This document shows, in pieces, positions 1,254 to 54,222 of a stretch of 64,000 nucleotides of DNA. The translations under genes and the position numbers were made by a program. The first letter of the stretch is position 1; every line of letters starts with the position of its first letter. The DNA is from a virus (taxonomy: Duplodnaviria; Heunggongvirae; Uroviricota; Caudoviricetes). The stretch lies in IMG/VR virus record IMGVR_UViG_2740892441_000001; one strand, 5' to 3'. The notes under the pieces are model-generated. The model ran no database searches. It saw only the letters and a list, made by a program, of their open reading frames with translations, and was not told the DNA's origin.

Positions 1254-1622
1254 TCACTCGTTCTCTTGAGTAGATGAGTCCCCATTCCCTCGGGGTTGAT
1301 CTTGCCCGCTTTCTTGGGCTGCGTCTTGATCATAAGTAAGTACTGACTTATTTTCAAGGGTATTTAGATCATTTTTTGGCGGAAAATTCAAGAGATCTTT
1401 ATCAAATTCCTTCTTCATCGCCTCAGTGATGTTCGGGAAAATCTTCTCAATCAGCATTTCCATCTGGTGACGACGTACAGAGTCCGGTGCCTGAAGTAAC
1501 GACAGTTTCTCGGCAACAGAAAATTCATCAGTAAGGCCACGAATATCGAAACTTTCTGGATACGCAATTAAAGAGTGGTCTTCGTCCAGATCTACCCCCA
1601 TCCATTTCGCAACCAGTAGCAT
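1254..1622 (-). CDS. Hypothetical acidic head-module protein
   Basis: 122 aa ORF; start overlaps end of upstream portal-like ORF; no recognisable motif. Confidence 0.35.
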   Translation of the reverse strand: MLLVAKWMGVDLDEDHSLIAYPESFDIRGLTDEFSVAEKLSLLQAPDSVRRHQMEMLIEKIFPNITEAMKKEFDKDLLNFPPKNDLNTLENKSVLTYDQDAAQESGQDQPRGNGDSSTQENE

Positions 1623-2827
1623 GATTTGGCGTTCAGCCTTTCCAGACGCTCTGCTTTTGTGACAAGCAAGCTATTTACACGCTGGAAGTCATACATTTTT
1701 GCGGCACCAGATGAGTTATCGATTCCCTGTGCGTTGTCCTGCTTCGTTCGCTCACCAGCTACACCAACTGAATGGTAGATTTCGTTAATCACCGTCTTAA
1801 TCGTAGTGATGATCATCTGAGCTTGTTTCGGGTCTGGTGACAGATAAAACGGCTGGTTTCCACCTTCAGAATCGTAGGTGAAGACTCGCTTTGTGCCCAT
1901 TTCAAGCACTTTAGTGTGGTTTTCATCACCAGGTAAAAGCGACTGTACCGGTATAGCCAACTGGCTAAATGTCTGATCCTGAATAATGGCATCAAGGTTT
2001 GACAGATAGTTTGCAACCGCACGATCAAGATAAGCGATATCATCGATCAACGATGGGCTGAAATACGGTGATTCACTTTCTCCAATACAATCAACAGGAA
2101 ACACAGGAACTACGCCGAGATTATGCTCACCGCTATCCTCTAAAATAACTTTTGCCTGACGGCGACCTGCTCCACCAGCGCCCTTCTTCACTTCCTCACG
2201 GAACAGATACCACTCGTTTTGTGTCCACAGACGATAACGTTGGTATTCCTGACCTGTAGAAGTAAAAGGATCTGCGTCATCACGAGCGACTTCCACAATT
2301 AACGCCCACAACATATTCCCGTCGTCGTCCCATGCCACATCCAGCATTTGCTGAGGTGAAATCCAGTAGGCGTAGGCGCGAGCATCTTTCTTTTTCTCGT
2401 CAGCTACTGACTCAACATCACCACTCATCGTGCTATCGACAACAACCCATATGCGACCGTAAATAGACGACTGCAAATCAATAGCGGCCATAAATGAGTC
2501 AATAGAGGCATTCTGGCGGGTCGCACGTTTCCAGAAATTGCGGATCTGCTCTGGTGCCTCTTCGATATTTCTATGAATGTCTTCTTTAAAGAGATATTTG
2601 TTGATGAGGTTTACCACCTCACGAGTGTGGTTGAAGCGATAAGCACGCTCAACTCGCTCCTTAAACTCCTGATCTCCCTCTTTAAAGTAACGAAAGATAT
2701 TGTCTGTAAACCAACCACGCCCGCCAGCGTAAGTGCTGGCGAGGAAGTCCCAATGTTCTTTTTTCTTTTCGTATTCCGGGTGGCGTCGCGCCACCAGATC
2801 CTTAATTTGTTTGTCGTTCAATTCCAT
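1592..2827 (-). CDS. Putative portal protein
   Basis: 411 aa ORF immediately downstream of large terminase on the same strand; RBS AAGG upstream; assignment by synteny. Confidence 0.5.
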   Translation of the reverse strand: MELNDKQIKDLVARRHPEYEKKKEHWDFLASTYAGGRGWFTDNIFRYFKEGDQEFKERVERAYRFNHTREVVNLINKYLFKEDIHRNIEEAPEQIRNFWKRATRQNASIDSFMAAIDLQSSIYGRIWVVVDSTMSGDVESVADEKKKDARAYAYWISPQQMLDVAWDDDGNMLWALIVEVARDDADPFTSTGQEYQRYRLWTQNEWYLFREEVKKGAGGAGRRQAKVILEDSGEHNLGVVPVFPVDCIGESESPYFSPSLIDDIAYLDRAVANYLSNLDAIIQDQTFSQLAIPVQSLLPGDENHTKVLEMGTKRVFTYDSEGGNQPFYLSPDPKQAQMIITTIKTVINEIYHSVGVAGERTKQDNAQGIDNSSGAAKMYDFQRVNSLLVTKAERLERLNAKSCYWLRNGWG

Positions 2828-2853: not shown

Positions 2854-4110
2854 CTATCGAGAACCACCAAGAATAACACGGTTTTTGACTGGATACCTAC
2901 GATGTACTGGATAGCCCAATGCGTCTGCACTATGCTCAATGCCACCTGTCTTATCCATATCTCGTGTTCCAGGCTTGTAGATGACCTTTTCCAGTGAATC
3001 AATCAAATGCTTGCACTTCGGATCGATATACAGCCGGATATCTCCAGATGCGGTCATCAGCATTCGGTTAACAGCATTAACACGATCCGCAATTGGCGGG
3101 TGCTTTTTCGAATAATCGACACGTAAGAATCCCTTCTCTTTGAATATGTCTACGTCAGACTCCCCGCGAGCATGTTGGCGATAAGCACCTGCCGGATCTG
3201 GAAATACCGTTATCTGTGATTTCCAGCGCCAGAAGCGCCTCTCAAGCTCATCACAAACCTCTGCCGTGTTAGAGGAAAAGAGCACCAATTCATCAATTGC
3301 CCATAGCTCACCATTTGGCTGAGGTTGCAAAATTACGGAAGACATCGGGTCAATGTTGAAGTCCTGTCCTACCCATATAGGCAACCGAGGGTTGAACTGA
3401 AGCGGTTTAACATGCACGTTTCGATCGAACGGGTAGTAAACGCGCCCGGACATATTTTCAAAGCTGGCCAGGTACTCCTGAGCGAACGATTTAGGGTCCA
3501 TATCGTTCTTAGCAGCTTCAATTTCCGCCGTAGGCACAAACGGCGAATCAGCAGTTACAAACTGCCAGCTCTTCCACTGTCCCTTTCTTTGCAGCTCTAC
3601 GTTCTGGCCTATAGTCCACAGTTTGTGAAATTCCGAGAAGCCTTTTGGCGTACCAATGATCAGTGCACCGCCGCGTGTCGATGAAAGAGTAGGTCGTAAC
3701 ACCTTGTACCAGGTGTCAGCCTTCATATCCTGAAATTCATCAAGCACTACAAAATGCAACGCTACGCCGCGCAGAGTGTCAGGTTTATCAGCACCTTTGA
3801 GGGCGATCTCCGAACCGTTCTTCAACACGATTGTCATCGTGGTGTCGTTCTTTTTCCTAACCCACTTACGGGGCAGAACTTCCTGTAGATCGTCCCACAA
3901 AATCTGGCGAGCCATCTGGTAAGTAGGAGCGACATACCAGACCCTTTGCTTTTTTTCCTTTGCCGCCGCACGAATAATAGTGGAGATCGACAACCGGGAT
4001 TTTCCCCAGCGTCGACCAGCACAAACAACTTTAAATCGATGCGGAGACTGGAAGACTTTCATCTGTCCAGAATGCAGTTGCACAAGACTGAGCGAGGACG
4101 GGATTGCCAT
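2854..4110 (-). CDS. terL: Terminase large subunit
   Basis: 418 aa; Walker A-like VVCAGRRWGKS, Walker B-like HFVVLDEFQD, C-terminal nuclease-like region with conserved acidic residues. Confidence 0.9.
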   Translation of the reverse strand: MAIPSSLSLVQLHSGQMKVFQSPHRFKVVCAGRRWGKSRLSISTIIRAAAKEKKQRVWYVAPTYQMARQILWDDLQEVLPRKWVRKKNDTTMTIVLKNGSEIALKGADKPDTLRGVALHFVVLDEFQDMKADTWYKVLRPTLSSTRGGALIIGTPKGFSEFHKLWTIGQNVELQRKGQWKSWQFVTADSPFVPTAEIEAAKNDMDPKSFAQEYLASFENMSGRVYYPFDRNVHVKPLQFNPRLPIWVGQDFNIDPMSSVILQPQPNGELWAIDELVLFSSNTAEVCDELERRFWRWKSQITVFPDPAGAYRQHARGESDVDIFKEKGFLRVDYSKKHPPIADRVNAVNRMLMTASGDIRLYIDPKCKHLIDSLEKVIYKPGTRDMDKTGGIEHSADALGYPVHRRYPVKNRVILGGSR

Positions 4111-6105: not shown

Positions 6106-6767
6106 GAATGGACCTCATCATAACTACCATTGTGATATTCCACCTTCACGCGTTCTTTGTAGTGCTTGGTGATCTGCATATCCGGGCGCAGCGCGTTCTT
6201 CAGGTCTTCGTGAGTCGTCGCCACCATTACCGTCGCACCAACCTTTCGAGCGGCACGCTGGAGGTTAGATGCCACAACCTGAGCGGTTACACGGTCTAGA
6301 ACAGCACCGAACTCGTCAGCAGCCCACACTTTAGCGCCTGACTCAATCAGTTTGGCAATCTTGAGACGATATTTCTGACCGTCTGACATTTCAGAAGGCT
6401 TGCGAACAAACAGATATGCATCGTTCAGACCTGCCATAGATAACAACCCAAGCGCATCACTGGTAGTTTTGCCCAGTTGGTCAATGACGTTAACCTCATT
6501 ATCGAAGGTAAAGTCATCAATAGAAGCTACAGAAAGCCCTTCATCCTTCATCTGGCGTTGCAACTCGCGCAACACAACGGATTTACCTGAACCGGATTGG
6601 CCGGTGATGTACACCACATCGCCCTGCTTCACTTCCAGCTCCAGATTGTCGTAAAGCGTCCACTCTTTTTCGTCCAGGCCAAGCCCGAACGACTCAGCGA
6701 TTTCCAACGTGCGCGTGGTTTTATTTACGCGTGTCTGAAACGATACGTTGATGATGTATTTGCTCAT
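6102..6767 (-). CDS. ABC-type ATPase domain protein (soluble)
   Basis: Walker A GQSGSGKS, ABC-signature-like MSDGQKYRL, Walker B VWAADEFGAVLD, H-loop-like ATTHED. Confidence 0.65.
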   Translation of the reverse strand: MSKYIINVSFQTRVNKTTRTLEIAESFGLGLDEKEWTLYDNLELEVKQGDVVYITGQSGSGKSVVLRELQRQMKDEGLSVASIDDFTFDNEVNVIDQLGKTTSDALGLLSMAGLNDAYLFVRKPSEMSDGQKYRLKIAKLIESGAKVWAADEFGAVLDRVTAQVVASNLQRAARKVGATVMVATTHEDLKNALRPDMQITKHYKERVKVEYHNGSYDEVHS

Positions 6768-7432
6768 GCAGCCATCTCCCCGGAAGAGATCTTCTCCGCA
6801 TATGCCACAAATGCGTCTACCCCGCTTTCTCCCGTCATTTCTTCCATGTGGGCAAGCAAATCACCAACAACAATGGCAGAGCCAGCAGGGAGCGTTTTAA
6901 AGCCCAATACGTCGATAACACGTACTTCTTCCGCTGCAACTTCACGACTGATCTCGGTGTGTTCATCCTTCTGTCGTTTAGTTTCTTCGCCCAGATCGAT
7001 AACTAGCGAGTCGGTGTCCATTTCTTCTGTCATGCTGCCAACGAGAACATTCAACTCCCGCTCTTCAAAGCCGAAAACCTCGATATCGTCCAGAACAAGC
7101 GACTCAAGTTCTTTCTGTAGCTTAATTGCATCGTAATCAATGCTGGCAAGTCGGTTATCTTCAAGGCGCTTCGCACGAACCTCGTCATCACTGAGATCAT
7201 CGCGAACAATAACCGGTACGCGCTCAAGTCCAGCAAAAATTGCAGCCTCACGGCGGCCGTGGCCAGTAATAATTACGTCGTTCTTATCGACCGTAATTGG
7301 CTGGTCAAATCCGCGCTTTTTAATGGCTGCGGCCAGATCTCGGATCTGCTGTTCATCATGCTTTTTGGCATTCATCTCATAGGGAATAAGATCTGCCGGG
7401 TCGCGATATACGATTTCAAACTTTTTGGTCAT
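6764..7432 (-). CDS. ParB-like nuclease domain protein
   Basis: ParB N-terminal-like motif ITGHGRREAA...VPVIV; start set at MTKKFEIVY (ATG overlapping upstream stop). Confidence 0.6.
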   Translation of the reverse strand: MTKKFEIVYRDPADLIPYEMNAKKHDEQQIRDLAAAIKKRGFDQPITVDKNDVIITGHGRREAAIFAGLERVPVIVRDDLSDDEVRAKRLEDNRLASIDYDAIKLQKELESLVLDDIEVFGFEERELNVLVGSMTEEMDTDSLVIDLGEETKRQKDEHTEISREVAAEEVRVIDVLGFKTLPAGSAIVVGDLLAHMEEMTGESGVDAFVAYAEKISSGEMAA

Positions 7433-8112
7433 TACATACACTCCTTGTAGTAGTCGACCAGCCACACCAGAGCCTCACCAGCGTTCTCCATTTCATTACC
7501 GGTGTTAATAGCCTGCTCTTTGATGATGTTTTTTATGGTTTCTGCAACACGATCTGACGCATCGAAAGTTACTTTGAAGCGCATGGTCTGATGTTCCGCA
7601 CCCACACGTTCGGTTTTCTCTCGTTTGTCGGTATCGACAGGCTCATCACTACCACGAGACAACGCCTCCAGTGCTTCAAGGTCGATTGCCGCCTCTTTTG
7701 CTAAAACCATCGAGATTTCGTCGTCATACGGGGCGATTTCAGACAGTTGATAGTCAAGTTCTGACTGAATTTCTTCAATGAAGCGTTGCAATGCGATTTG
7801 GTCGTCTTCACCGTATCGCTCGTTGTCCACTAGTGACATCTGTTTAGCTACGACATCGCTAATTTTGCCCACAGAAAGCACCGGAACCGTTGAAATTCCT
7901 TGCTCAATAGCAGCACGCCAGCGATGTTCGCCGCCGAGGATTTCAAAAAATCCATCTTCAAGTTCACGAGCCAAAATTGGCTTAAAAAAGCCCAATTTTT
8001 CGATAGAACCTTTCAGTTTTTCAAAATTCTGCGCACCAACCGAATTGGTGTTCCAGGTATTCGGGCGAAGGTTGGCAACATCAACCTGCAAAATCGTGAT
8101 TTTTACATCCAT
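7432..8112 (-). CDS. ParB-like nuclease domain protein
   Basis: ParB/Srx signature FEILGGEHRWRAAIEQGISTVPV; first gene of the operon, divergent from helicase gene. Confidence 0.65.
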   Translation of the reverse strand: MDVKITILQVDVANLRPNTWNTNSVGAQNFEKLKGSIEKLGFFKPILARELEDGFFEILGGEHRWRAAIEQGISTVPVLSVGKISDVVAKQMSLVDNERYGEDDQIALQRFIEEIQSELDYQLSEIAPYDDEISMVLAKEAAIDLEALEALSRGSDEPVDTDKREKTERVGAEHQTMRFKVTFDASDRVAETIKNIIKEQAINTGNEMENAGEALVWLVDYYKECM

Positions 8113-16973: not shown

Positions 16974-17303
16974 TTACTCGAATACTTCAAGAAACTCCTG
17001 AACGTCCCAATGCTGGACGAGGTGAAGATAGACCTTAGAAATCACGTCATTTTCGCTATCGCATGTGAAGTAGTACTTCTGGCTGCGGTTGTATGTGTCC
17101 ACACAAAATTCGCTCATATCCATAAAGTCAGCATCTTCACCCATGTCGCAAATCATCAAAGCAGGTGCGTCATCACGAGTCATCAGCTCAAGCACCCACC
17201 GCGAATTGATCAGAGTGGAAGACCAACCTTCTAACTCATAAAACTGATCAAACTCTTTTTGAGTTAATTTCTTGATTTGGTTGATGTCGATATTTGCAAA
17301 CAT
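16974..17303 (-). CDS. Hypothetical acidic protein
   Basis: 109 aa; conserved promoter element at 17318-17350 immediately upstream. Confidence 0.5.
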   Translation of the reverse strand: MFANIDINQIKKLTQKEFDQFYELEGWSSTLINSRWVLELMTRDDAPALMICDMGEDADFMDMSEFCVDTYNRSQKYYFTCDSENDVISKVYLHLVQHWDVQEFLEVFE

Positions 17304-17639
17304 AAATCAATCCTTAAACAACATGTTTTCTTATTGGTGTTATTATCGCAATAACGCATAGGCGAAAAAGGATTTTATTCCGGTGAATGTGGTTTTGGCA
17401 GTGAGTTTTCAGGTTCAGTACCGAGTACACTTTTTACATTATTCTGATTTAGTAGCCGAAGGTGGCTGGTGGGCAGAATAATCATCTCCCCGAAAACCTA
17501 CTGAAATCGATTGTGACCCGCTGACTGTCTGGCACAATTACGCTGTAGTTGGGCATTCAGAGGGAATCCAGCGGTAAGTAAGTTCGCCTGCACGTGAGCG
17601 CCTCTCTTCTTCCCGCACATTACAGGTGGATAGCCGCAA

Positions 17640-17800
17640 CTCTCCCTCTCGCTATACCGGTACGCCGCCGTTCCTGAACCGGCATCGAGCCTTTTCCCGA
17701 AATCCACACAGGCAACTCGACCGTTTCCCTGAAAACCTCCAGCCGTTCCCCGAAGGCAACCCAGCCGTTTCTGTAGCGGGATGCAGCCTTTTCCCTGTAT
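17640..17800. repeat. Array of about 6 direct repeats of the CCGTT(T/C)CC(C/T)GAA family
   Basis: CGCCGTTCCTGAAC, AGCCTTTTCCCGAAA, GACCGTTTCCCTGAAAA, AGCCGTTCCCCGAAGG, AGCCGTTTCTGTAG, AGCCTTTTCCCTGTAT at ~22-30 bp spacing; contains DnaA-box-like AAATCCACACA. Confidence 0.65.
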
Positions 17801-17949
17801 GGACCGAAGGCTGACCGTAGGGGTGTTACGGGGGATAAAATCAGTAGTTGAATAAATACGAAAAAGGAGGCGACACCCCTCCTTCCCTCCCCACTTATAC
17901 ATACCTGGCTTCTTCGCTATGCATGTTGTGTTTTCTTCGTGTTTTATCT

Positions 17950-18500
17950 GTTTCAACCTCTCTATAGGCGTTAATGCTCACTCCTTCCAGAACGTTCTAT
18001 ACGGCAACTATTTCTGTTGGTGAATTGGGTGTGTTGTTTTCTCTGTCGGTGTATGTGGTTTCGTTCGTTTTGCGGTGGTTCTTCTATAGGGTGTTCTCGT
18101 CGTTTTGGTGATTGTTCTTCTCCGTCTATGGAGTAATGGCAGGTGGGCGATTCCTTTCGTTATTGTGTTTGAGTTGTTTGTCTGGAGTGCGTGAAGGGCT
18201 TTTGTAGTTATTCGTGTATTGGGTAATGGCGTTTCCCGTGATTGTTCTGTTTCGTGTCTTTTGGGATTGAAGAATCCTTGCGGTAACAGGCTTCGTTGGG
18301 GTTTCAGTGATTCTGGTGTTTCTTCGCTGTTTGGGTAATGGCGTGTCGTGGGTATCGCGCGTATGAATGTTTTCGGATTGCCTGTGAAAGTTAGGTTGGT
18401 TGTCCGGTAGCCTGGGAAGAAGAGGTGGGTCTTTTCGGTAGCCTGCCATAAAGAGGTTGGTTGTTTTTGGGAATGGCATATGCGTTATTTAGTTGTTTTG
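17950..18500. repeat. Strongly GT-skewed non-coding region built from degenerate tandem repeats
   Basis: Plus strand almost entirely G/T; repeated TTGGGTAATGGCGT units (~18135, ~18220, ~18335) and GGTAGCCTG units; overlapping ORFs have implausible T/P/Q/N-rich composition. Confidence 0.6.
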
Positions 18501-18866
18501 TTATGCCTGAAAATAAGTTGTTTATATGGTTATGTAACGCAACGGGAACGATTTTGAGCGTGTGTTTTTGTTGGTAGTGTGTTGGGTCGTCTGTGGTGAA
18601 AATTGGACGCTGTGGCGCTGTCTGCTGCGTAGGATTGCGGGTATAAGAAGTAATGTGTGAAAACGTCAATTTTTTAGACCAAATCGGGTGAAAGCGTTGA
18701 CGTTTCGTTGATCTGTTATTCAGTTGTTTTCTTGTTTGTATAAACAACTATAACCTATTGATATTTAAGGGTGTGATTGCAGGTATGGAAGGGGAGTAGT
18801 GGCGATCAACGGATTCTTATAGAAAAGAATCAAATTGTGACCGCCATTATCAATAAGTTGCAACCG

Positions 18867-19436
18867 TTAGTTGTTCAGATAAACATTTGGAACACGGACG
18901 TAGAAGTTCCTGTCACCGGTAAGTTCCAGAGTAATGTTAATGTCATTACCATTGTCTAGTGTAGCCGTTGCTCTATAGAACTTATCCGTCACCTTGTCCT
19001 CTATTGTCACCTTCATACATTTTGGTGCAGTCGAACCGTTATTCTCTTTCAGAATAGTTGTCACGAGAGGGCAGGCTGCTTCTTCAAGAGCAACCTCGTC
19101 CTTGTGTGGGATGCCGATGAAGATAATCCAAGCCAGCGACGCAACGATTATGATAAATGGCACTCTGCTGCCTTTTGTAATAGTCGCGCGCTTCCAGAGA
19201 TAGACAGGCAGGAGGAATACCCCCCATAGAATTGAAGGTGGTTCACAGCCAGACTCCGATAGAGCCATTCTGTCAGCTACTAACAAACCGATGGTAGTTA
19301 CACCCCCAATTATAATAGCGTAATTGGTATACTCTTCCGGCAATACTCCAAAGAAGAAAGGCATGAACGCTAGAATCCACGCATAAATGTTATTCAGAGG
19401 TTTTGTTTGTTGGTTCTGGGTTTCCATCACATCCAT
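18867..19436 (-). CDS. Putative membrane protein
   Basis: 189 aa with several hydrophobic helices (e.g. IYAWILAFMPFFFGVL, FIIIVASLAWIIFIGI). Confidence 0.5.
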   Translation of the reverse strand: MDVMETQNQQTKPLNNIYAWILAFMPFFFGVLPEEYTNYAIIIGGVTTIGLLVADRMALSESGCEPPSILWGVFLLPVYLWKRATITKGSRVPFIIIVASLAWIIFIGIPHKDEVALEEAACPLVTTILKENNGSTAPKCMKVTIEDKVTDKFYRATATLDNGNDINITLELTGDRNFYVRVPNVYLNN

Positions 19437-19588
19437 TCCATCACATAAAAATCGCTTTTATATATTATCAATTTTCTCACTTGTATAACCTAAATACGCA
19501 TCCGTTTATCAATCCACCTTCCACAAACATCAGCTTTGGCTATGAAAAATGACAATCTCAAAGTGAAACCATTATCATAGGATAACGA

Positions 19589-19774
19589 TTAGATGAGATG
19601 GTCTAATTCATCATCTATCATCGCTTTAACACTTGAGTCATTAACCCCGTATTGATTTATGAGCCGTTTCAGCTCCGGTGAAAACTGAAGGTAGATATCG
19701 TGGGCGTTTTTCACTGTAGGTTCAACGCCACGCATTTCAAGCGCCTTTAGTAGATATGAGTCTTCTTTAAGCAT
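19589..19774 (-). CDS. Hypothetical small protein
   Basis: 61 aa ORF in operon with 19811-20119. Confidence 0.4.
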   Translation of the reverse strand: MLKEDSYLLKALEMRGVEPTVKNAHDIYLQFSPELKRLINQYGVNDSSVKAMIDDELDHLI

Positions 19775-19810
19775 AAATTCTCCGTTATCTAGTATGAAGC
19801 GATTGCCGGA

Positions 19811-20119
19811 TTACCATTGCCAGCACTCAAGCCCTTCAACGACCGGTGCGCCACAATCAAAATGTACAGAGTCAAAGCCTACATCAAGTACTTTCTGAAT
19901 GTTCGCAATCGCGCCCTCGGATATACCATATCGACGCAACTCATCTTTCCAGTCATCGTCCTGTAACCCGGCGTGGACAATGCAACCGTACTCAATTTGT
20001 GAAACCCAATCCAGCTCATTGCTTGCGATCATGAATCGGCGAGCATCTTCCTCTGATGTATGAGATGAGCTGATCAATGCCACCTGGTAGGCTTGGGTAA
20101 TGTTCAACATTTCAACCAC
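19811..20119 (-). CDS. Hypothetical protein
   Basis: 102 aa; tandem conserved promoter elements at 20120-20195 upstream. Confidence 0.5.
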   Translation of the reverse strand: MVEMLNITQAYQVALISSSHTSEEDARRFMIASNELDWVSQIEYGCIVHAGLQDDDWKDELRRYGISEGAIANIQKVLDVGFDSVHFDCGAPVVEGLECWQW

Positions 20120-20271
20120 TCCGAAACAATTTGTTTTCTTATGTGGCTTATTATCTCAATCAACAAAAGGCAGAAAACAAATTGTTTTAGGGTTTGTTAA
20201 AGTCAGAAGGGATTGTGTCTATATGAAAATGCCCAGCGTATTGCCGGGCATTGTGAAGAATGGTTGCTTAA

Positions 20272-22305
20272 TTACTTAACCTGGTGGCCAGGTTTAGCAC
20301 CAGCATCCGGGCTTAACAGGAAGATGTCTTTCCCGCCGGGGCCAGCAGCCATCACCATGCCTTCGGAGATACCGAAACGCATTTTACGCGGAGCCAGGTT
20401 AGCCACCATAATGGTGTGACGGCCAATCAGTGCCTGTGGGTCTGGATAAGCGGAACGGATGCCTGAGAAGACATTGCGTTTTTCACCGCCGAGATCCAGC
20501 GTCAGGCGCAGCAGTTTGTCAGAACCTTCAACAAAGTCTGCGTTTTCGATCAGCGCCACGCGCAGGTCAACTTTGGCAAAGTCGTCAAAGGTGATGGTTT
20601 CCTGAATCGGGTCGTCTGCCAGCGGGCCAGTAACTGGCGCGGCAGTAGCTTTCACTTCTTCTTTAGACGCTTCCACCAATGCTTCCACCTGTTTCATGTC
20701 GATACGGTTATACAGTGCTTTGAACGGATTCACTTTATGGCCCAGCAGCGGTTGCTGGATACCATCCCAGGTCAGTTCTGTATTCAGGAATGCTTCTGCA
20801 CGTTCAGTCAGTTTCGGCAGTACCGGCTTCAGGTACGTCATCAGCACGCGGAACAGGTTAATGCCCATAGAGCAAATCGCCTGCAGATCGGCATCGCGTC
20901 CTTCCTGCTTCGCCACCACCCACGGAGCCTGTTCATCGACATAGCGGTTAGCCAGGTCAGCCAATGCCATGATTTCACGGATAGCTTTACCAAATTCGCG
21001 GCTTTCCCATGCTTCGCCAATCACTTCAGCGGCATCAGTAAAGGTTTTGTACAGTTGCGAGTCAGCCAGTTCGCTTGCCAGCACGCCGTCAAAACGCTTG
21101 TTGATAAAGCCTGCATTACGGGAGGCCAGGTTAACCACTTTGTTCACGATATCGGCATTCACGCGCTGAACGAAATCCTCCAGGTTGAGATCGATATCAT
21201 CAATGCGCGAAGAGAGTTTCGCAGTGTAGTAGTAACGCAGGCTGTCGGCGTCAAAATGATTCATCCAGGTGCTGGCTTTAATAAAGGTGCCGCGAGACTT
21301 GGACATCTTCGCGCCGTTCACCGTCACATAGCCGTGAACAAACAGGTTGGTCGGCTTGCGGAAGTTGCTGCCTTCCAGCATGGCAGGCCAGAACAGGCTG
21401 TGGAAGTAAACGATATCTTTACCGATGAAGTGGTACAGCTCGGCGGTGGAGTCTTTCTTCCAGTATTCATCGAAGCTGGTAGTGTCGCCGCGCTTGTCGC
21501 ACAGATTCTTGAAGGAACCCATGTAGCCAATCGGTGCGTCCAGCCAGACGTAGAAATATTTACCCGGCGCGTTCGGAATTTCAAAACCGAAGTAAGGTGC
21601 GTCGCGGGAGATATCCCACTGTTGCAGACCAGATTCAAACCACTCCTGCATTTTGTTTGCCACCTGCTCCTGCAACGCACCGCTGCGGGTCCATGCCTGC
21701 AACATTTCGCTGAAAGAGGGCAGATCAAAGAAGAAGTGTTCAGAATCACGCATTACCGGCGTAGCGCCAGAAACTACCGATTTCGGCTCAATCAGTTCAG
21801 TCGGGCTGTAGGTCGCGCCGCAAACTTCACAGTTATCGCCGTATTGATCTGGCGCTTTACATTTCGGACAGGTGCCTTTCACAAAACGATCCGGCAGGAA
21901 CATGCCTTTTTCCGGGTCGTACAACTGAGAGATAGTGCGGTTTTTAATAAAACCGTTCTCTTTCAGGCGAGTATAGATAAGCTCAGACAGCTGGCGGTTC
22001 TCTTCGCTGTGCGTCGAGTGATAGTTGTCATAGCTGATGTTAAAGCCTGCGAAATCAGTCTGGTGTTCCTGGCTCATTTCGCCAATCATCTGTTCCGGTG
22101 TGATACCAAGCTGCTGTGCTTTCAGCATGATCGGCGTACCGTGGGCATCGTCGGCGCAGATGAAGTTGACCTCGTGGCCGCGCATTCGCTGGTAACGGAC
22201 CCAGACATCAGCCTGGATGTGCTCCAGCATATGGCCGAGGTGGATTGAGCCGTTAGCGTACGGCAGCGCGCACGTCACCAGAATTTTCTTCGCGACTTGG
22301 GTCAT
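20272..22305 (-). CDS. metG: Methionine--tRNA ligase (methionyl-tRNA synthetase), enterobacterial type
   Basis: 677 aa from [26 protein letters not shown]... with HIGH (HLGH) and KMSKS motifs; recalled as near-identical to E. coli MetG; start reassigned to 22305. Confidence 0.97.
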
Positions 22306-22462
22306 AGTAGGCATTACTTCTTTGTAGTGAAAAGGGGCTTGATAGTAACAAAATGGCCTTATGTCTGCCATGTGATAACAGCATTTCTCATAAATGATTA
22401 AATGTCGTAGCTGGAGTACACTACAAGGCGACAATTGCGCAAATTAAAATAAAGGAGACGGG

Positions 22463-23563
22463 ATGAGCGAGTCCAAATCGCCGGATGCCCTGAGAGCAAT
22501 GGTAGCCGGTACGCTGGCTAATTTTCAGCACCCAACCCTGAAGCACAACCTGACTACGCTTAAAGCGTTACACCATGTTGCGTTGATGGATGACACACTG
22601 CATGTCGAACTAATCATGCCTTTCGTGTGGAATAAGCCTTTTGAAGACCTGAAAGAGCAATGTAGTGGTGATCTGCTCCGTATCACTGGCGCAAAGGCTA
22701 TCGACTGGAAGCTGTCGTACAACATTGCCACGCTTAAGCGCGTCAAAAACCAACCAGGCATTAATGGCGTTAAGAACATCATCGCCGTCAGCTCAGGCAA
22801 GGGCGGTGTAGGCAAATCGTCCACAGCAGTAAACTTGGCACTGGCGTTGGCTGCTGAAGGTGCGAAAGTTGGTATTTTGGATGCCGATATCTACGGTCCA
22901 TCAATTCCAACCATGCTGGGTGCGGAAAACCAACGTCCAACCTCACCGGACGGTACTCACATGGCACCTATCATGTCTCATGGCCTGGCAACCAACTCTA
23001 TTGGTTATCTGGTCACCGACGACAATGCAATGGTGTGGCGTGGACCGATGGCCAGCAAGGCGTTAATGCAGATGTTGCAGGAAACTCTATGGCCTGATCT
23101 GGACTATCTCGTTCTCGATATGCCGCCGGGCACTGGTGATATTCAATTGACGCTGGCGCAGAACATTCCTGTAACTGGTGCTGTTGTGGTAACTACGCCG
23201 CAAGATATCGCGCTGATCGATGCGAAGAAAGGCATTGTGATGTTCGAAAAAGTCGAAGTGCCGGTACTGGGTATCGTCGAAAACATGAGTGTGCATATTT
23301 GCAGTAACTGCGGTCATCACGAGCCAATTTTTGGCACCGGTGGCGCACAGAAGCTGGCCGAGAAATACAACACGCAGTTGTTAGGCCAAATGCCACTTCA
23401 TATCTCTCTTCGTGAAGATCTGGATAACGGAACACCAACCGTTATTAGTCGTCCAGATAGCGAATTTACGGCTATTTATCGTGACCTCGCAGATCGCGTT
23501 GCTGCCCAAATGTATTGGCAAGGTGAAGTAATACCTGGCGAAATCGCATTCCGCGCAGTGTGA
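22463..23563 (+). CDS. apbC: Iron-sulfur cluster carrier protein ApbC/Mrp (P-loop ATPase)
   Basis: 366 aa; deviant Walker A SGKGGVGKSS and CxxC motif (CSNCGH); divergent from metG with enterobacterial-type intergenic region. Confidence 0.95.
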   Translation: MSESKSPDALRAMVAGTLANFQHPTLKHNLTTLKALHHVALMDDTLHVELIMPFVWNKPFEDLKEQCSGDLLRITGAKAIDWKLSYNIATLKRVKNQPGINGVKNIIAVSSGKGGVGKSSTAVNLALALAAEGAKVGILDADIYGPSIPTMLGAENQRPTSPDGTHMAPIMSHGLATNSIGYLVTDDNAMVWRGPMASKALMQMLQETLWPDLDYLVLDMPPGTGDIQLTLAQNIPVTGAVVVTTPQDIALIDAKKGIVMFEKVEVPVLGIVENMSVHICSNCGHHEPIFGTGGAQKLAEKYNTQLLGQMPLHISLREDLDNGTPTVISRPDSEFTAIYRDLADRVAAQMYWQGEVIPGEIAFRAV

Positions 23564-23565
23564 TA

Positions 23566-23590
23566 AAAAGGTGGTGCAATGCACCACCTA
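23566..23590 (+). terminator. Hairpin GGTGGTGCAATGCACCACC after apbC
   Basis: Perfect inverted repeat immediately after apbC stop. Confidence 0.5.
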
Positions 23591-23600
23591 AACAGTTCTC

Positions 23601-23990
23601 CTACATCACAGGACAATCATCAAACTCGCCACTTCTTGCGTCGTTGATAATGTGAGTGATCACACCAAACACGGCATTGCTGCCCGTGCATCCATCATCA
23701 TCCTTTGGCAATGCTTCCTTCTTACCAGTTCTTAAATCCTCCAGATGCTGACGTGGATACTTCCGGTATCTTTTTACGCGATATTCCCCATCCAGAGCAC
23801 ATACAAGAAGAGATCCATCAACAGGAGTGAGTGAGGAATCGACCACCAGCAATGCACCCTGCAATATTCCCTCACGATGATGACTATCAGCCGCCCTCAT
23901 GAAGTAGGTCGCTGAAGGATGTCTAATTATCTGCTGATCAAGAGAAATACGGCTCTCTGCATAATCCGCCGCAGGAGATGGGAAGCCCAT
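23601..23990 (-). CDS. UmuD'-like S24 peptidase-fold protein (HumD-like, lacks UmuD N-terminal arm)
   Basis: 129 aa starting MGFPSPAADYAESR, matching E. coli UmuD from Gly25 onward; conserved Ser and Lys positions present; LexA box upstream. Confidence 0.85.
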   Translation of the reverse strand: MGFPSPAADYAESRISLDQQIIRHPSATYFMRAADSHHREGILQGALLVVDSSLTPVDGSLLVCALDGEYRVKRYRKYPRQHLEDLRTGKKEALPKDDDGCTGSNAVFGVITHIINDARSGEFDDCPVM

Positions 23991-24008
23991 AGCGTTTTCA
24001 CCTCAAAA

Positions 24009-24028
24009 TACTGTTTATATATACAGTA
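24009..24028. promoter_or_regulatory. LexA (SOS) box TACTGTTTATATATACAGTA
   Basis: Perfect CTGT-N8-ACAG palindrome 19-38 nt upstream of the UmuD'-like start, overlapping a TATACT -10-like hexamer. Confidence 0.8.
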
Positions 24029-24120
24029 TACATGAAAGAAACCCACTTAGTGCAACCGATCGAGACTCTTCACCAAACAAAAATATTTTTCTCAAATAAG
24101 AAAAGGCAGAAAACAAATTG

Positions 24121-24150
24121 TTTAAGGCCACTAGTTGTGGCCTTAATGGG
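24121..24150. terminator. Hairpin AAGGCCACTAGTTGTGGCCTT (terminator-like) after gene 24161-24685
   Basis: Stem-loop read directly; same family as 28300-28325. Confidence 0.4.
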
Positions 24151-24160
24151 GGAGGGGTGC

Positions 24161-24685
24161 TTATTGGCTATGGCTAAAAATCAAATGAGACACTTCATGT
24201 GGTTGTAGCTCGTCAAGATCCGGGGCCACAAAACCTTTTCCGAAAGACTTCACAAGTGATTCACCAGCCGCATCATTGTCACCTATTACGCGAAAGTCAT
24301 ACGGCAGCATTGCCAGTTGACGACGTAATCCTGCTGAGAAAGTCGAACCTAACAGCGCCCACGAATTTCCGCCCGCGTTGTGCACTGCTGCACTTTTAAA
24401 AATCGACTCAGTTATCCATATCGGTCCATCTTTTAAAGGAAGATAGGTTCCCCATAGTAGCTGTCTGCCGTGCGCTCGTGTGAAATACCGGGCCATCTTC
24501 GGATTGCTATGCTGCTTAGGAGCGCCTGGTCTGTATGTCTGATACCCGGCCAACATCCCATCAAACCTGTATAGAGGGAACGTAACAACTCCTTCGCTTT
24601 CATCGATCCACTGTCTATATGGATGCACATCATGGCGGTAGTTGCGAGTTAGCAAATGAGCTTCCAGCTTTCCAAATTTGGTCAT
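24161..24685 (-). CDS. TOPRIM-domain protein (primase-like fold)
   Basis: Start set at MTKFGKLEAH; segments ITESIFKSAAVHNAGGNSWALLG and VIGDNDAAGE resemble TOPRIM E...DxD motifs. Confidence 0.45.
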   Translation of the reverse strand: MTKFGKLEAHLLTRNYRHDVHPYRQWIDESEGVVTFPLYRFDGMLAGYQTYRPGAPKQHSNPKMARYFTRAHGRQLLWGTYLPLKDGPIWITESIFKSAAVHNAGGNSWALLGSTFSAGLRRQLAMLPYDFRVIGDNDAAGESLVKSFGKGFVAPDLDELQPHEVSHLIFSHSQ

Positions 24686-24698
24686 AACTTCGCATCCC

Positions 24699-25553
24699 TC
24701 ATAACACTTCCCATTTATCACCATATTTCTCCATAGCTCTTAGCCAGTAAACATGGCCACTAGGCATAGTGATGTGAGGCTCGCCAAACTCTTCTCCATG
24801 CACATCAAAGATGTCCCCAACAGAGAATTGGGGGATTTCTACGCCGTTTTCACCTATATGCGTAATTCGTATACGTTTCGGTTGAAATTGTCCACCTTTG
24901 AGCGAGTTGTTCACTGCTCTGGCAATTTTCTCCCGCAATTGCTGCGTTACGTGGTACTGAACCGCAATATCCCGCAACTCGTTCACCAGTTCTCTAATCT
25001 GGTGATCTTTAAGCTCATTATTTGGGTGATGGGCAACAACTCTGGTTAATTCACCCTTGTCTTTTGCTCTTACGTATGCAGCTCTTGTGCATTCGACCCA
25101 TGTATTACCGCCTACATTAACTTCGTAGATTAGGCTGGACTTATCTGTCAATTCGGAACAAATACGGGCCGTGGTCTGGCAACTAGAGCATTCGCAGTTA
25201 TCGCGGAAACCGTGGTCTACTGGCTGCGGTTTCACATCATCAACTTTTTCTACCCTATTGGAATTTAAATACTTCGAAGCCTTGCTATGCCAATCGCTGG
25301 TTTTAGGATCTTGTCCATCCATCAAACGCCAGGCTTCAGCGATTAACTCATAACTAGTGACTGTAGCTTCCTGCGCATCACCAATAAGTCGTGTAATCTC
25401 TCTTTCAAGCCGACCGCCTAGCTCTGTTTTAGTGCAATGTTCTGACCAATCGCCAGCCTCAAGCAGCGCGAGAATGCTTAAAATATCGTCCAATAGAACG
25501 GTAGTATTATCGACTTCCTTCTGAAACTCACCGGCTACTGATTTATGCATCAT
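24699..25553 (-). CDS. Hypothetical protein
   Basis: 284 aa ORF in operon with the TOPRIM gene; cysteine cluster CECSSC. Confidence 0.5.
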   Translation of the reverse strand: MMHKSVAGEFQKEVDNTTVLLDDILSILALLEAGDWSEHCTKTELGGRLEREITRLIGDAQEATVTSYELIAEAWRLMDGQDPKTSDWHSKASKYLNSNRVEKVDDVKPQPVDHGFRDNCECSSCQTTARICSELTDKSSLIYEVNVGGNTWVECTRAAYVRAKDKGELTRVVAHHPNNELKDHQIRELVNELRDIAVQYHVTQQLREKIARAVNNSLKGGQFQPKRIRITHIGENGVEIPQFSVGDIFDVHGEEFGEPHITMPSGHVYWLRAMEKYGDKWEVL

Positions 25554-39632: not shown

Positions 39633-40277
39633 CTAATGAACGGTCACTCGGCCACAGAACCGGTTTTCTATCTTTTCTACAGCGTTATCTAGCATTCTCA
39701 TCACTGATCTGGCTCTTGCTTCAACCGTGCGATATCGGTTGGAAACGACGAAGGTTTGCAGATCCCCCCTTTGCGGATGCAGGTGAATTTTTGTCAGTTC
39801 CCCGCACATCAACGCATCAATACGAGCGACATACAGACGGTCTAATGATGCTCGTTGTGATCGCAAGTAATCTCGCTCTGAGAGAGCGACTCCCGGGCGT
39901 AAGCCAGCAATGGCGTTAAAGTTTGAAATAGCAGTTTTGTGGCAAAACTTTTCGATATCGAGGGCTAACTCAATACATCGATCTTCATTGGTATGGCCGA
40001 CCAAATCCAACGTGTAGGCCATAACATCAGCAGGTGTGCGATCGATAACAAAGCCTTCAACACCACGCGTAAGTAGCTCTATATGCTTTGCTATTTCCAT
40101 TTGAATCTGAAGCCGCTCATATAGAGGCATAGACTCACCTACTCGAACACCGAGTCGGCTCATCAAACTTCCGACACCAGCATCCACGTAAGGGATTCCG
40201 TAATGTTTGTCGATATATTTTGCCAGGGTTGTTTTCCCACTGCCCTGAGCACCAGTGATCCCAATCCGGTAATCCAT
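39633..40277 (-). CDS. P-loop NTPase, probable (deoxy)nucleotide kinase
   Basis: Walker A GITGAQGSGKTT at N-terminus; small size and position within the nucleotide-metabolism cluster. Confidence 0.55.
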   Translation of the reverse strand: MDYRIGITGAQGSGKTTLAKYIDKHYGIPYVDAGVGSLMSRLGVRVGESMPLYERLQIQMEIAKHIELLTRGVEGFVIDRTPADVMAYTLDLVGHTNEDRCIELALDIEKFCHKTAISNFNAIAGLRPGVALSERDYLRSQRASLDRLYVARIDALMCGELTKIHLHPQRGDLQTFVVSNRYRTVEARARSVMRMLDNAVEKIENRFCGRVTVH

Positions 40278-40752
40278 TACGACCTTCTGTATACGATCTG
40301 CGAAAAGCCAGGCTCTTCCTCGCTGGCTCGTTGGGTATAAGCTGTTTCAACAGGCACAAAGCCTAAGTTACGCATCATGCTTGCCGGGAAGAATGCATCG
40401 GCGTTTGGTACATCAACGCCGATGTGGGAGAGCCAAATCTCTTCAACATGCGGCATGAATAGCGAGTAAATTTGTTCCCCGCCAATCACCCACACAGGCT
40501 CTGGTAATCGCAACACATCATCCACACCAGCAGGTAGAATCCATTTGGTACAAAGCCATGAGAGCGCGTCAAAACGAGGTTATGACGCTCTGGAAGAGGG
40601 CGTTTGAGACTTTCCATCGTTTTACGCCCCATAACGACAGTGGCGTTTTTGGTGAGTCTCTTAAATAGCTTCAGATCGGTAGAACAACGCCAGGGGAGTT
40701 CATTCGCTATGCCGATCTCATAGTTACGGCCAACAGCAGCGATCATCTTCAT
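40277..40752 (-). pseudogene. Dihydrofolate reductase, interrupted by a frameshift (or sequencing error)
   Basis: N-terminal [25 protein letters not shown]...[11 protein letters not shown] and C-terminal ORF ...[10 protein letters not shown]... are DHFR halves in different frames; junction ~40525-40565. Confidence 0.75.
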
Positions 40753-41162
40753 TTGCTCACCTCATAGATGACCGGTCGATGGTGAGAGTCGGCTAAAGCG
40801 GCACGGAGTCGAGGATCGTGCACCAGCGCAGCGATAAGCAGATCGCCTTTATGCTCCGCTAATGTGCGCTTAATATGCTTCTCATAACTGGTGCCATTCG
40901 GTACGAGATGAAGCCAGTCATAATCAACGCCAAAATCTTTCAGCCATCGTTTAGTTGGCGCTTCAAGAGTTTCAGAGCGGCTACTGATAAGCACCACTTC
41001 AGCCCCTGAGCGAGCAAAACCACGCAACATACGGCTGGTGGGGAAAATGAGTTCATCACCGGCAATGAGCTGGCCTGCATCCGCGTCAGATACTGATTTA
41101 CGATGGCTGGCATTTGCCAGCACACCTTCAATTTCGCATAAGACATACATACCTCTTGCCAT
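40749..41162 (-). CDS. Hypothetical protein (possible degenerate HAD-like nucleotidase)
   Basis: Start set at [17 protein letters not shown]; weak resemblance to HAD motif I. Confidence 0.35.
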
Positions 41163-41163
41163 A

Positions 41164-42267
41164 TCACACCGCCACTGGAACCTTGATCCACGGTAGAGGG
41201 TCATAGCCAAGAATTAAAACCTCGTCCCATTTGAAATCATCCAACTCTGACCATTCATGAGGGAAAATAACGACCGGATCTGAATGCTCTGGAGCCTGTC
41301 GTTTCATTAGCTCACACACACCTTCCATGTGGTTGTTGTACAAATGCACGTCAAAGCCAAAATGCACAAATGCACCGGCCATGTGACCCGTAATCTTCGC
41401 GAGAAAATGAGTGAGAATGCCATAGCCAGCAATATTGAATGGCATACCAACAAAAGTGTCTACGCTACGCTGTACGAGGCAGGAGTTGAGGATGCGTTTG
41501 GGGATTCCAAGTTCATCCAGTTCAGCTTCAGTAACACTGCCGTCCATCTCCAGATCGTATAGCATCTTGGTGTAGATAGACTCGTAACCGAGGCGACTGT
41601 GTTGAAGACCAATGTCAGTTGCCATCGTTAAACGGGTTTCAAAATCCAGCTCACGACTCCACAAAGAGAAGACAAAGTGGCAAGGTGGCAGTTTCATATC
41701 CTCAAGCTCGCCTACGTTCCATGCGTTAAGCATGATGCGACGATCGGTGGGGTTCGTGCGCAGTGTATCGACAATACGCTGTAGCTGATCGATTTCACGG
41801 GACAGCACTACGCGATCTTCACTGATACCCAGGTATCCCTCGACTTTGTACCCGCGTTCACGGAAAGTATCGATCTTGCTCAGATATTCACTATGGCTCA
41901 CGATGCGGGTATCTTCCCATCGACGCCACTGCTTACCGTAAACCGGCCCCAAATCGCCATTCTCATCGGCCCATGCATCCCAAATCTTAACGCCGTTATC
42001 CTTGAGAAATTGGATGTTGCCCGTGCCTTTCAGATACCACTCAAGTTCGACAAGTAGTGGCTTAAGATTTACCGCCTTTCCAGAAATAAGCGGCACAGTC
42101 CCACCAGTAAGCATGTAGTAAGAGGGAACATAGCAGGTGCTTAAAGTACCAGTGCCTGTGCGATCATCAGCCTGCACGCCGCTTTTAAGCACCGTCTCAA
42201 TAACTTTTGCATACGATGCGTTTGTTACCTGACCGTTCGTATGCTCTCGATTCAAAAGGAGTGACAC
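41164..42267 (-). CDS. thyA: Thymidylate synthase (ThyA family, with insertions)
   Basis: DRTGTGTLS, WDAWADENGDLGPVYGKQWRRW, NAWNVGELEDMKLPPCH (catalytic Cys), GMPFNIAGY, GYDPLPWIKVPVAV parallel E. coli ThyA; 367 aa versus ~264 aa. Confidence 0.88.
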   Translation of the reverse strand: MSLLLNREHTNGQVTNASYAKVIETVLKSGVQADDRTGTGTLSTCYVPSYYMLTGGTVPLISGKAVNLKPLLVELEWYLKGTGNIQFLKDNGVKIWDAWADENGDLGPVYGKQWRRWEDTRIVSHSEYLSKIDTFRERGYKVEGYLGISEDRVVLSREIDQLQRIVDTLRTNPTDRRIMLNAWNVGELEDMKLPPCHFVFSLWSRELDFETRLTMATDIGLQHSRLGYESIYTKMLYDLEMDGSVTEAELDELGIPKRILNSCLVQRSVDTFVGMPFNIAGYGILTHFLAKITGHMAGAFVHFGFDVHLYNNHMEGVCELMKRQAPEHSDPVVIFPHEWSELDDFKWDEVLILGYDPLPWIKVPVAV

Positions 42268-42437
42268 AAAAACCTCACAAAGATAAGTAATTACTTATTC
42301 ATCGTGTGAGTTTACATTCATTGAGAGAACAAGACCAGACAGATAAAAAAATGGTGGCCATAGGCCACCAAAACGAATAGTCATTCCAGAGTTTTATTAC
42401 GCATGTTAAATATACACAGATAGATAACTACCTACAA

Positions 42438-43307: not shown

Positions 43308-43384
43308 GCTAGTTTTGTTCCTTCTTAATTCTTGTGATCCATTGTGGCCCAGCGTTGCCAGGCCACATAATGCTTTGTATCGGT

Positions 43385-44527: not shown

Positions 44528-44627
44528 GTGTTTTTCCTTTTTTGATGTGTTTAAACAAGTTGTTATCTTATGTGTTTAAACAAGGCTTACAAATCAAAGA
44601 TAAGGTGGGGATATACCCCACCATATG

Positions 44628-54220: not shown

Positions 54221-54222
54221 GA

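Follow-up and report, generated by a model that had tools for sequence, protein, structure and literature searches.

How does a phage come to carry a methionyl-tRNA synthetase of host type, and what could it be for? The question is raised by a 64,000-nt stretch of a Caudoviricetes genome (IMG/VR record IMGVR_UViG_2740892441_000001; "the window" below means this whole stretch), in which a complete metG and its divergent neighbour apbC (mrp) lie between a phage-type promoter/operator element and a LexA-boxed gene of the UmuD' type, humD. The original prediction had recognised this arrangement and left three explanations side by side: capture of host housekeeping genes, a composite or rearranged locus, or an assembly chimera. 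By gene content and collinearity, we assign the window to an SSU5-supergroup (pSLy3/pWPMR2-like) phage-plasmid of an Escherichia/Shigella lineage. We read the metG-apbC block as a long-resident, positively maintained accessory module of that lineage, moron-like in architecture, and put the probability of this reading at about three in four.

Profile matches well above cut-offs bear out the predicted identity of all three genes. The metG open reading frame spans 20272-22434 on the minus strand; its true start lies at 22305 and gives a protein that begins MTQVAKK. It matches the NCBIfam methionine--tRNA ligase equivalog NF001100 with 1017.6 bits (cut-off 587) over residues 4-677 of 677, and its C-terminal tRNA-binding and dimerisation domain, residues 543-677, matches TIGR00399 metG_C_term with 161.5 bits (cut-off 116.65). 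The HIGH (SIHLGHML) and KMSKS (GAKMSKSRG) motifs and the zinc-knuckle cysteines can be read in the translation, and internal stops are absent from all 34 complete phage-plasmid copies. MetG is thus predicted to be an intact class I methionyl-tRNA synthetase (MetRS) that aminoacylates tRNA-Met and tRNA-fMet. ApbC scores 759.3 bits with the NCBIfam equivalog NF008669 (cut-off 348, residues 2-366) and 342 bits with Pfam PF10609. Its translation contains a deviant Walker A motif, GKGGVGKS, within SSGKGGVGKSST, and a CXXC cluster-binding motif in HICSNCGHHE; it is probably an Fe-S cluster carrier P-loop NTPase, in a deeply diverged allele specific to phage-plasmids. HumD is a full-length family member (219.8 bits, cut-off 120), and the perfect LexA box upstream of its gene, TACTGTTTATATATACAGTA, is the sole such site in the window.

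The two genes of the block appear to have contrasting histories. We regard apbC as an old resident of the element, because it is only ~82% identical to chromosomal copies and has a phage-like GC content at third codon positions (GC3). Against 80 chromosomal loci of Enterobacteriaceae, one genome per GTDB species, its nucleotide identity is 81-83% in Escherichia and 76-82% in other genera, with a maximum of 83.3%. The synonymous divergence (dS, Nei-Gojobori) is 1.4-1.9 from Escherichia, Citrobacter and Enterobacter, compared with 1.19 between the apbC genes of E. coli and Citrobacter, while the nonsynonymous divergence (dN) hardly differs whether measured from Escherichia, Citrobacter or Salmonella (0.035-0.041). 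GC3 is 0.52, against 0.59-0.63 for Escherichia apbC and 0.42-0.53 for the element's genes (one at 0.60). In neighbour-joining bootstrap trees built on 36 taxa, phage-plasmid apbC forms its own clade outside all Escherichia chromosomes (100 of 100 replicates); this clade is sister to Escherichia in 98 of 100 replicates with all positions and in 40 of 100 with first and second codon positions. The protein has ~20 lineage-specific residues relative to the chromosomal one, is three codons shorter and is nearly invariant within the lineage: 32 of 44 related copies encode exactly the ApbC of the window. Scanning 185,579 GTDB species representatives for a donor returned nothing closer to apbC than 95% in amino acids or 83% in nucleotides; a search of 5.8 billion proteins was uninformative, its clusters having been built at 90% identity.

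metG, by contrast, looks younger and host-like. Its protein is ~98% identical to E. coli K-12 MetG, with 11 differences in 677 residues, its GC3 (0.62) is that of Escherichia, and its dS of 0.28 from E. coli equals the distance between Escherichia species. In the trees, phage-plasmid copies nest inside Escherichia (100 of 100 bootstraps). The gene nonetheless belongs to a separate allele class. Chromosomal matches, 5,424 in 5,426 complete E. coli genomes, are all 93.4-94.5% identical to it, and the 220 plasmid-borne copies in the same genomes ~95-98%, the two ranges being without overlap; among the 80 species loci the gene reaches 92.8-94.2% in Escherichia and 83-87% in other genera. The original prediction had named divergence from chromosomes together with phage-like composition as a sign of long residence: apbC shows both, metG only part of this.

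Recombination would account for the difference. Along metG, the nearest relative changes from tract to tract, being E. coli or Shigella in some and E. ruysiae, E. albertii or another species in others, and pairwise differences among seven phage-plasmid copies are 1.4-6%. Compared with eight Escherichia chromosomes, phage-plasmid-specific sites number 4 of 2,034 in metG and 85 of 1,101 in apbC; the four-gamete test on 13 copies puts the minimum of recombination events at 61 for metG and 12 for apbC. The copy on a Shigella sonnei plasmid shares a 344-nt tract with K-12 that is identical despite 99 differing sites overall (permutation p<0.0005), and other phage-plasmid copies hold identical tracts of 143-197 nt (p 0.0005-0.047, uncorrected for eight comparisons). 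No site in metG is diagnostic for E. coli versus the other Escherichia species, and a mosaic test on such sites was uninformative. Taken together, metG is best described as a distinct allele class of Escherichia type, mosaic and recombining.

Selection statistics show that both genes and the control region between them are held by strong purifying selection. Omega is 0.01-0.04 for either gene against chromosomes. Among 45 copies, which represent 32-35 distinct haplotypes, variation is synonymous at 108 codons of apbC and changes the amino acid at 10, mostly as singletons, and 33.5% of the four-fold sites of the gene segregate; for metG, these values are 289, 24 and 54.5%. Against them stand 4 segregating sites in the 157 nt of the intergenic region (44 sequences). 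Of 43 related copies with a complete region, 32 match the window without a difference; a divergent copy from E. marmotae has seven further intergenic substitutions and an indel.

This intergenic region had been taken for native chromosomal sequence, which holds for its edges. In chromosomes, BLAST finds no more of it than the 47 nt that adjoin the metG start (89-94% identity, Escherichia), and pairwise alignment with K-12 adds a short conserved stretch at the apbC start; the rest is phage-plasmid-specific and nearly invariant. Within the metG-proximal 47 nt we see, by eye in the alignment, an extended -10 element, TGTTACTAT, conserved with K-12. Folded as RNA, neither strand of the region does better than shuffled sequences (z 0.23 and 0.57), and the region has no Rfam match; a structured RNA is unsupported, and a regulatory role at the level of DNA is more likely. 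We read the region as overlapping divergent promoters with predicted regulatory sites.

The module is widespread within a narrow host range. A 5-kb query around the block is present over at least 80% of its length in 167 plasmids and whole in 195 of the 5,426 complete E. coli genomes, and the block also occurs in 31 IMG/VR loci and four phage genome records. The phage-plasmid apbC allele is found in ~190 plasmids, all from Escherichia (coli, albertii, fergusonii, marmotae) or Shigella, and almost all of them non-mobilizable and of ~108-115 kb. Every close relative examined keeps metG-apbC. The conserved unit is this pair and not the trio with humD: the humD of the window, with its LexA box, resembles that of P1 and D6, yet it is a variable partner of metG-apbC, replaced or absent in some relatives.

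The edges of the block are sharp (Table 1). Homology to the chromosome, as aligned to E. coli K-12, extends from stop codon to stop codon (20272-23563). The wider limits first proposed for a chromosomal block, 20213-23600, contain this core; their ends beyond the stop codons are not chromosomal. The spacer 3' of metG has no match in the 80 chromosomal loci, only in phage-plasmid copies, and the hairpins beyond the block (~20231-20249 and 23569-23589) differ from the E. coli chromosomal terminators, so that they cannot be counted, as they had been, as native to it. The phage-type element recognised earlier at 20120-20195 is confirmed by two inverted copies of AGAAAACAAATTGTTT (20124-20139 and 20172-20187), 100% complementary to each other, and is kept at 84-86% in two metG-less relatives (loci L083 and L084). 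As predicted, there is no insertion sequence or integrase among the window genes at either junction. Direct repeats, which had been reported missing, do exist: a 41-nt repeat, 88% identical between its two copies (20151-20191 and 24087-24127), brackets metG-apbC-humD. It is one instance of a recurrent intergenic element, which relatives also have at the limits of other cassettes. SSU5-like plasmids of Citrobacter freundii and Salmonella that lack metG are syntenic with the window as far as 19993 and again from 28079 on, and in them copies of the element separate ydfZ, an LprI-family gene and an HD-domain gene. The block is thus absent from related elements at this position and other cargo is there instead; we infer that cargo in this variable region is exchanged by recombination between copies of the recurrent element.

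These observations bear on whether the block could be a recent capture from a current host chromosome, or a hybrid of the transduction type. In all 80 species the chromosomal metG-mrp locus has the two genes in the same order and equally divergent, and the closeness of MetG to the K-12 protein would suit such an origin. Yet no chromosome exceeds 94.5% identity in metG or 83.3% in apbC, homology ends at the stop codons, the composition of apbC has shifted to that of phage genes, and the block with its junctions is common to hundreds of elements from four Escherichia species and Shigella. Moreover, phage-plasmid metG from E. albertii and E. marmotae hosts is no closer to the chromosomal metG of those species, which also excludes an independent capture from each current host. 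Recent capture is very improbable in our view; the earlier idea that host housekeeping genes had been captured is right in kind and wrong in timing, there being no near-identical donor chromosome. A chimeric assembly of phage-plasmid and host chromosome is more remote still. Tracts of 140-340 nt in metG that are identical to chromosomal alleles can mislead short-read assemblers, and one IMG/VR scaffold shows a suspicious hybrid. However, both junctions recur in the 12 related copies compared, drawn from ~190 complete circular plasmids and phage records, with the junction spacers (20193-20271 and 23564-23600) at 89-100% identity. The apbC allele is also not chromosomal in the E. coli examined (~82-83% identical), and a plasmid search returned it almost only at 95% identity or above, on records of phage-plasmid size. 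The recurrence of the same junctions across independent complete plasmids, phage records and IMG/VR contigs likewise disposes of a composite or rearranged locus. All this argues that the block is real and old, neither a chimera nor a recent capture.

The hybrid scaffold just mentioned, IMGVR_UViG_2740892421_000017 (loci L124 plus L129), deserves a description of its own. The 5' 1,100 nt of its metG are of phage-plasmid type, and the 3' part and downstream flank are chromosomal; in addition, the scaffold joins a 922-nt chromosomal metG fragment to phage-plasmid DNA, with a stretch of 10 unreadable nucleotides in between. We considered integration at chromosomal metG and rejected the scaffold as evidence for it: the break lies at the unreadable stretch, which is typical of a scaffold gap, and the crossover falls inside a ~200-nt tract identical in phage-plasmid and chromosomal alleles. 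Most simply, the hybrid is a scaffolding artefact through the shared identical tract, a real integration being less likely. The complete E. coli chromosomes contain neither a phage-plasmid-type metG nor a second metG.

We propose the following course of events. The whole divergent metG-mrp(apbC) locus would have been captured once, long ago, from an Escherichia-related bacterium, cut down to precisely the coding sequences of the two genes and the control region between them, and furnished with terminators of its own. Recombination between copies of the recurrent promoter/operator/terminator element is a likely route of insertion. Repeated short gene conversions by chromosomal and other phage-plasmid alleles may later have kept metG Escherichia-like, while apbC, presumably too diverged to recombine with the hosts, drifted to phage base composition.

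What the module does is best approached from the lysogen, which would gain a second, catalytically intact and wild-type-like MetRS together with a second ApbC. Both genes are probably expressed from the conserved sigma-70 extended -10 promoter region, independently of phage operons, and a perturbed homeostasis of Met-tRNA charging may then give rise to a tolerant or persister subpopulation. According to a paper that cites them (PMC12452169), Tam et al. (2024; medRxiv 10.1101/2024.10.27.24316207) associated multidrug-resistant S. sonnei with variable metG copies on a phage-plasmid, and expression of phage-plasmid metG produced a subpopulation predisposed to acquire cephalosporin resistance. Separately, metG mutations or reduced metG transcription raise persistence (PMC11004401). 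An effect at the level of the lysogen, on Met-tRNA homeostasis and tolerance, is therefore the best-supported candidate function, through a mechanism that we can so far only suggest. That metG can be phage-plasmid-borne was already known from S. sonnei, as the same source indicates (PMC12452169); what we add is incremental, namely that metG and apbC have had different histories, that ApbC and the control region are almost frozen, and that the block sits in a repeat-bracketed cassette.

Three other functions deserve consideration. MetRS and ApbC could serve the lytic cycle, sustaining translation initiation and elongation during lytic replication as copy number goes up and more protein is needed, which would be compatible with the lysogen-level reading. 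Helper genes of this sort are at hand (ThyA, NrdA and SbcCD in the window; tRNA-Ser/Thr/Tyr/Asn, dfrA51, nrdAB and dnaE in the collinear plasmid p09EL50), der stands beside apbC in one variant, MetRS occurs in a few other large phages, and strong purifying selection fits any real function. However, metG has a housekeeping promoter of chromosomal type and terminators instead of being part of a phage operon under the recurrent operator motif, the element has no annotated tRNA-Met, formyltransferase or deformylase, and the published phenotype concerns lysogens; we consider a lytic role possible, with the odds clearly against it. It is less likely again that the extra MetRS is coupled to a toxin, buffering an AtaT-like GNAT toxin or speeding recovery from the dormancy that the toxin induces. 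AtaT is said, in work by Jurenas et al. in 2017, to acetylate charged initiator Met-tRNA, although its specificity is debated. p09EL50 encodes a DUF1778 antitoxin and a GNAT toxin (94552-95350; 44552-45350 of locus L095), and the toxin matches PDB chains 6GTS and 6AJM, chains of AtaT, with E about 1e-78 and most aligned residues identical; it also matches KacT. The toxin-antitoxin locus is present in 145 plasmids of the same Escherichia/Shigella clade. Yet it lies outside the 64-kb window and is known here from p09EL50, not from the element of the window; co-occurrence within one clade is linkage and not functional evidence; only 145 plasmids have it against ~190 with apbC; at least one plasmid apparently without metG, NZ_AP027577.1, carries it as well; and the substrate of the toxin is a predicted one. 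Least plausible of the three is that the block is passenger DNA without function for the element, or serves as nothing more than a homology arm for recombination or integration with the host chromosome. metG clearly recombines with other alleles, as a homology arm should, but apbC is too diverged for this, and the 5,424 chromosomal metG matches include none of the phage-plasmid class and no sign of integration at metG. Nor would a passenger be under such strong purifying selection, with an ApbC protein nearly frozen while a third of the four-fold sites vary and a control region nearly invariant.

Several points weigh against the reading of a positively maintained lysogenic module. No amino acid change is common to all phage-plasmid MetG copies and absent from chromosomes, and because of this any effect of MetG would have to stem from dosage, expression or individual alleles. 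The phenotype is known second-hand, from the summary in a citing paper, and for the S. sonnei element, whose MetG is 10 residues off that of the window. No Fe-S enzyme that might account for the tight conservation of ApbC is annotated in the related complete element. The consensus scan listed neither a promoter nor a terminator for metG, both being assigned by eye. Insertion via the 41-nt repeats is conjectural: when the two flanks were joined as a query for an empty site, they were adjacent in no plasmid. Finally, the phage-plasmid copies are related, and polymorphism counts are not independent samples, including a 10-copy comparison in which 1 of 157 intergenic sites varies against 20% expected (naive binomial probability ~2e-14); the direction of the signal is still clear.

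Comparison with known systems places the module more precisely. The pWPMR2-type phage-plasmid of S. sonnei is the same kind of element with the same metG cargo. A 108-kb S. sonnei plasmid, NZ_CP045933.1, which may not be pWPMR2 itself, has the same order of DUF5983 gene, metG, apbC, humD and toprim gene; the two share 95.8% of nucleotides with each other in metG and 97.9% in apbC, window against plasmid, and their ApbC proteins are identical. Among seven phage-plasmid MetG copies compared, G134C, A410T and D565E occur only in the S. sonnei protein, and L348M, P416S and E590D only in that of the window. A tolerance phenotype can be suggested for the metG allele of the window by likeness to the S. 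sonnei element only. The chromosomal metG-mrp locus shares with the window the genes, their divergent orientation, a similar spacer size, and conserved metG extended -10 region, 5' untranslated region and ribosome-binding regions; it differs in its flanking genes and terminators, which are absent from the window, in a central intergenic part that cannot be aligned, and in the alleles of both genes.

Phage morons are host-derived, self-contained units with their own promoter and terminators, absent from related phages at the same place. The block resembles them in its host derivation and in its absence from related elements at this place, and would also do so in its promoter and terminators, which are putative; unlike morons and auxiliary genes, it travels on a low-copy plasmid prophage and includes a gene still exchanging with host alleles. 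Aminoacyl-tRNA synthetases occur in jumbo phages and giant viruses. Phage MetRS is rare, with any match in 26 of 50,697 phage records, and those of other phages are mostly 24-32% identical (57-65% in three records) or unverified fragments, compared with the ~98% amino acid identity to the host here. The isoleucyl-tRNA synthetases MupA and MupB are likewise second essential synthetases on mobile elements. They are highly diverged and inhibitor-insensitive, whereas MetG of the window matches the ordinary equivalog, not an "exception" model, and has no lineage-specific substitution, so that target replacement for inhibitor resistance is not indicated. The humD genes of D6 and RCS47, encoding a pre-processed UmuD'-type subunit common to P1/D6-type phages, are 86% identical in DNA to that of the window; the P1/D6 gene sits in a P1-type backbone, that of the window in an SSU5-type backbone.

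Table 1. Features of the metG-apbC locus and of the surrounding element, in positions of the 64,000-nt window.
Feature	Position	Strand	Remark
Portal gene	1592-2827		phage structural/packaging gene
TerL, large terminase gene	2854-4110		phage packaging gene
Two genes of ParB_N-domain proteins	6764-7465 and 7432-8112		partition genes
DUF5983 gene	19811-20110	leftward	left neighbour, behind the promoter/operator element
Left boundary, phage-plasmid promoter/operator element	20124-20192		two inverted AGAAAACAAATTGTTT copies flanking a GATAAT -10-like hexamer
Left copy of 41-nt imperfect direct repeat	20151-20191	+
Phage-plasmid-specific spacer 3' of metG	20193-20271	-	holds a terminator-like hairpin
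metG-side terminator-like hairpin	~20225-20249 (hairpin ~20231-20249)	-	GCCCGGCAATACGCTGGGC plus ATTTTC; seen by eye
metG	20272-22305	-	677 aa
Divergent control region	22306-22462		157 nt
apbC/mrp	22463-23563	+	366 aa
Hairpin and T-run ending humD	23569-23589	-	adjoins the apbC stop codon; listed by the consensus terminator scan on the humD strand
humD	23601-23990	-	UmuD'-type
LexA box	24009-24028		TACTGTTTATATATACAGTA, perfect; upstream of humD
Right copy of 41-nt direct repeat	24087-24127		within the right boundary, 24087-24147
Terminator hairpin of toprim gene	24122-24146		right boundary; relatives diverge rightward of here
thyA	41164-42267		checked directly
Rep3_N/Rep3_C replication initiator gene	54223-55278		plasmid replication

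The window qualifies as a phage-plasmid by its own content, because portal and terminase, a Rep3 initiator and ParB are found on one molecule. Further genes encode a helicase, a DNA methyltransferase-like protein, thymidylate synthase (ThyA), NrdA and SbcCD. Positions 8286-71089 of p09EL50, a plasmid of E. coli O104:H4, are collinear with the window at 90-98%. The Rep3 segment, 53669-55766, has no megablast match in p09EL50, and both its flanks are collinear; the replicon allele of the window seems to differ from that of p09EL50. By the same collinearity, a dfrA51-type trimethoprim-resistant dihydrofolate reductase is expected beside thyA and nrdAB at ~40270-46950 of the window, where thyA and nrdA were checked directly and dfrA51 and the remainder are projected from p09EL50.

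Deposited records of relatives include circular plasmids as well as phage genomes; the element of the window is predicted to be maintained extrachromosomally and to produce virions. The phage records Cyrano, PhiR41_1 (stated host K-12 MG1655) and CMS-2020a match the 5-kb region around the block at 95-96%. Salmonella plasmids of 106.7 kb, and plasmids of Yersinia pestis, match the window more weakly (76%); their sizes would fit pHCM2 and pMT1. pWPMR2 and pSLy3 have been assigned to the SSU5 supergroup, pWPMR2 to its clade K (bioRxiv 10.1101/2025.09.12.675607).

The surroundings of metG-apbC vary among relatives. What follows humD on the right is a toprim gene in some, a theta subunit with a type I restriction-modification system in others, or else DNA-binding genes. 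In the E. marmotae plasmid NZ_CP146383.1 (4859-6331 of locus L097), humD is replaced, directly after apbC, by der, a chromosomal housekeeping gene that likewise belongs to the translation machinery and encodes the ribosome-biogenesis GTPase Der/EngA. The 62-kb, apparently reduced E. albertii plasmid CP043239.1 keeps metG-apbC beside deacetylase and GNAT genes; its humD is mostly replaced, a 111-nt remnant being left. One IMG/VR contig (7100-10300 of locus L112) keeps metG-apbC and lacks the whole variable segment from humD to 28 kb: apbC is followed by a short gap and then by genes adjoining a DUF4942 gene, with no humD.

Elsewhere in the window, a 16-nt, partly palindromic motif, AGAAAACAAnTTGTTT, occurs at 15 sites (4783-57318) against 0.1 expected, including 14669, 15154, 16832, 17316, 20124, 32834, 33563, 44553 and 57303. 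Most copies lie 8-10 nt past a GATAAT-like hexamer and 10-20 nt ahead of a Shine-Dalgarno sequence and ATG, before small leftward genes; the sites look like a family of promoters with one shared putative operator. The minus strand of 17990-18750 is gene-free over ~760 nt, with 40% A, 31% C, 13% G and 17% T, and is followed by a terminator-like hairpin near 17862-17885. This interval is free of coding sequences in relatives, and metG-less SSU5-like plasmids keep it at 66-71%. Tandem repeats are absent from it, as are Rfam matches; a scan of 17000-25000 found no Rfam family at E up to 1. A C-rich, G-poor transcript from it would resemble a Rho-loading site or a long non-coding RNA.

A more speculative reading, to which we give low odds, is that metG-apbC is an ancient co-selected unit of built-in dormancy or recovery control, with ApbC and the 157-nt control region frozen by selection and its value tied to an AtaT-like toxin of the element that would target charged initiator Met-tRNA. 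If this were true, MetRS would set the depth and duration of lysogen arrest, and its gene, patched with host alleles, would remain compatible with whichever Escherichia host the element entered. The element could then also move metG alleles, tolerance alleles among them, between Escherichia species.

Whatever its function, the module is present in ~4% of complete E. coli genomes, counted as 220 plasmid-borne metG matches across 5,426 genomes. Annotation pipelines label it plain metG and apbC, and it is easily taken for contamination or a chimera. The mosaic metG suggests sequence exchange between an essential gene of the chromosome and its counterpart on a mobile element. An extra essential translation enzyme on an infectious phage-plasmid is of clinical relevance, given its published link to antibiotic tolerance in epidemic S. 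sonnei (Tam et al. 2024, as cited in PMC12452169). Since apbC and the control region are conserved more tightly than metG, work on metG only may miss part of the function.

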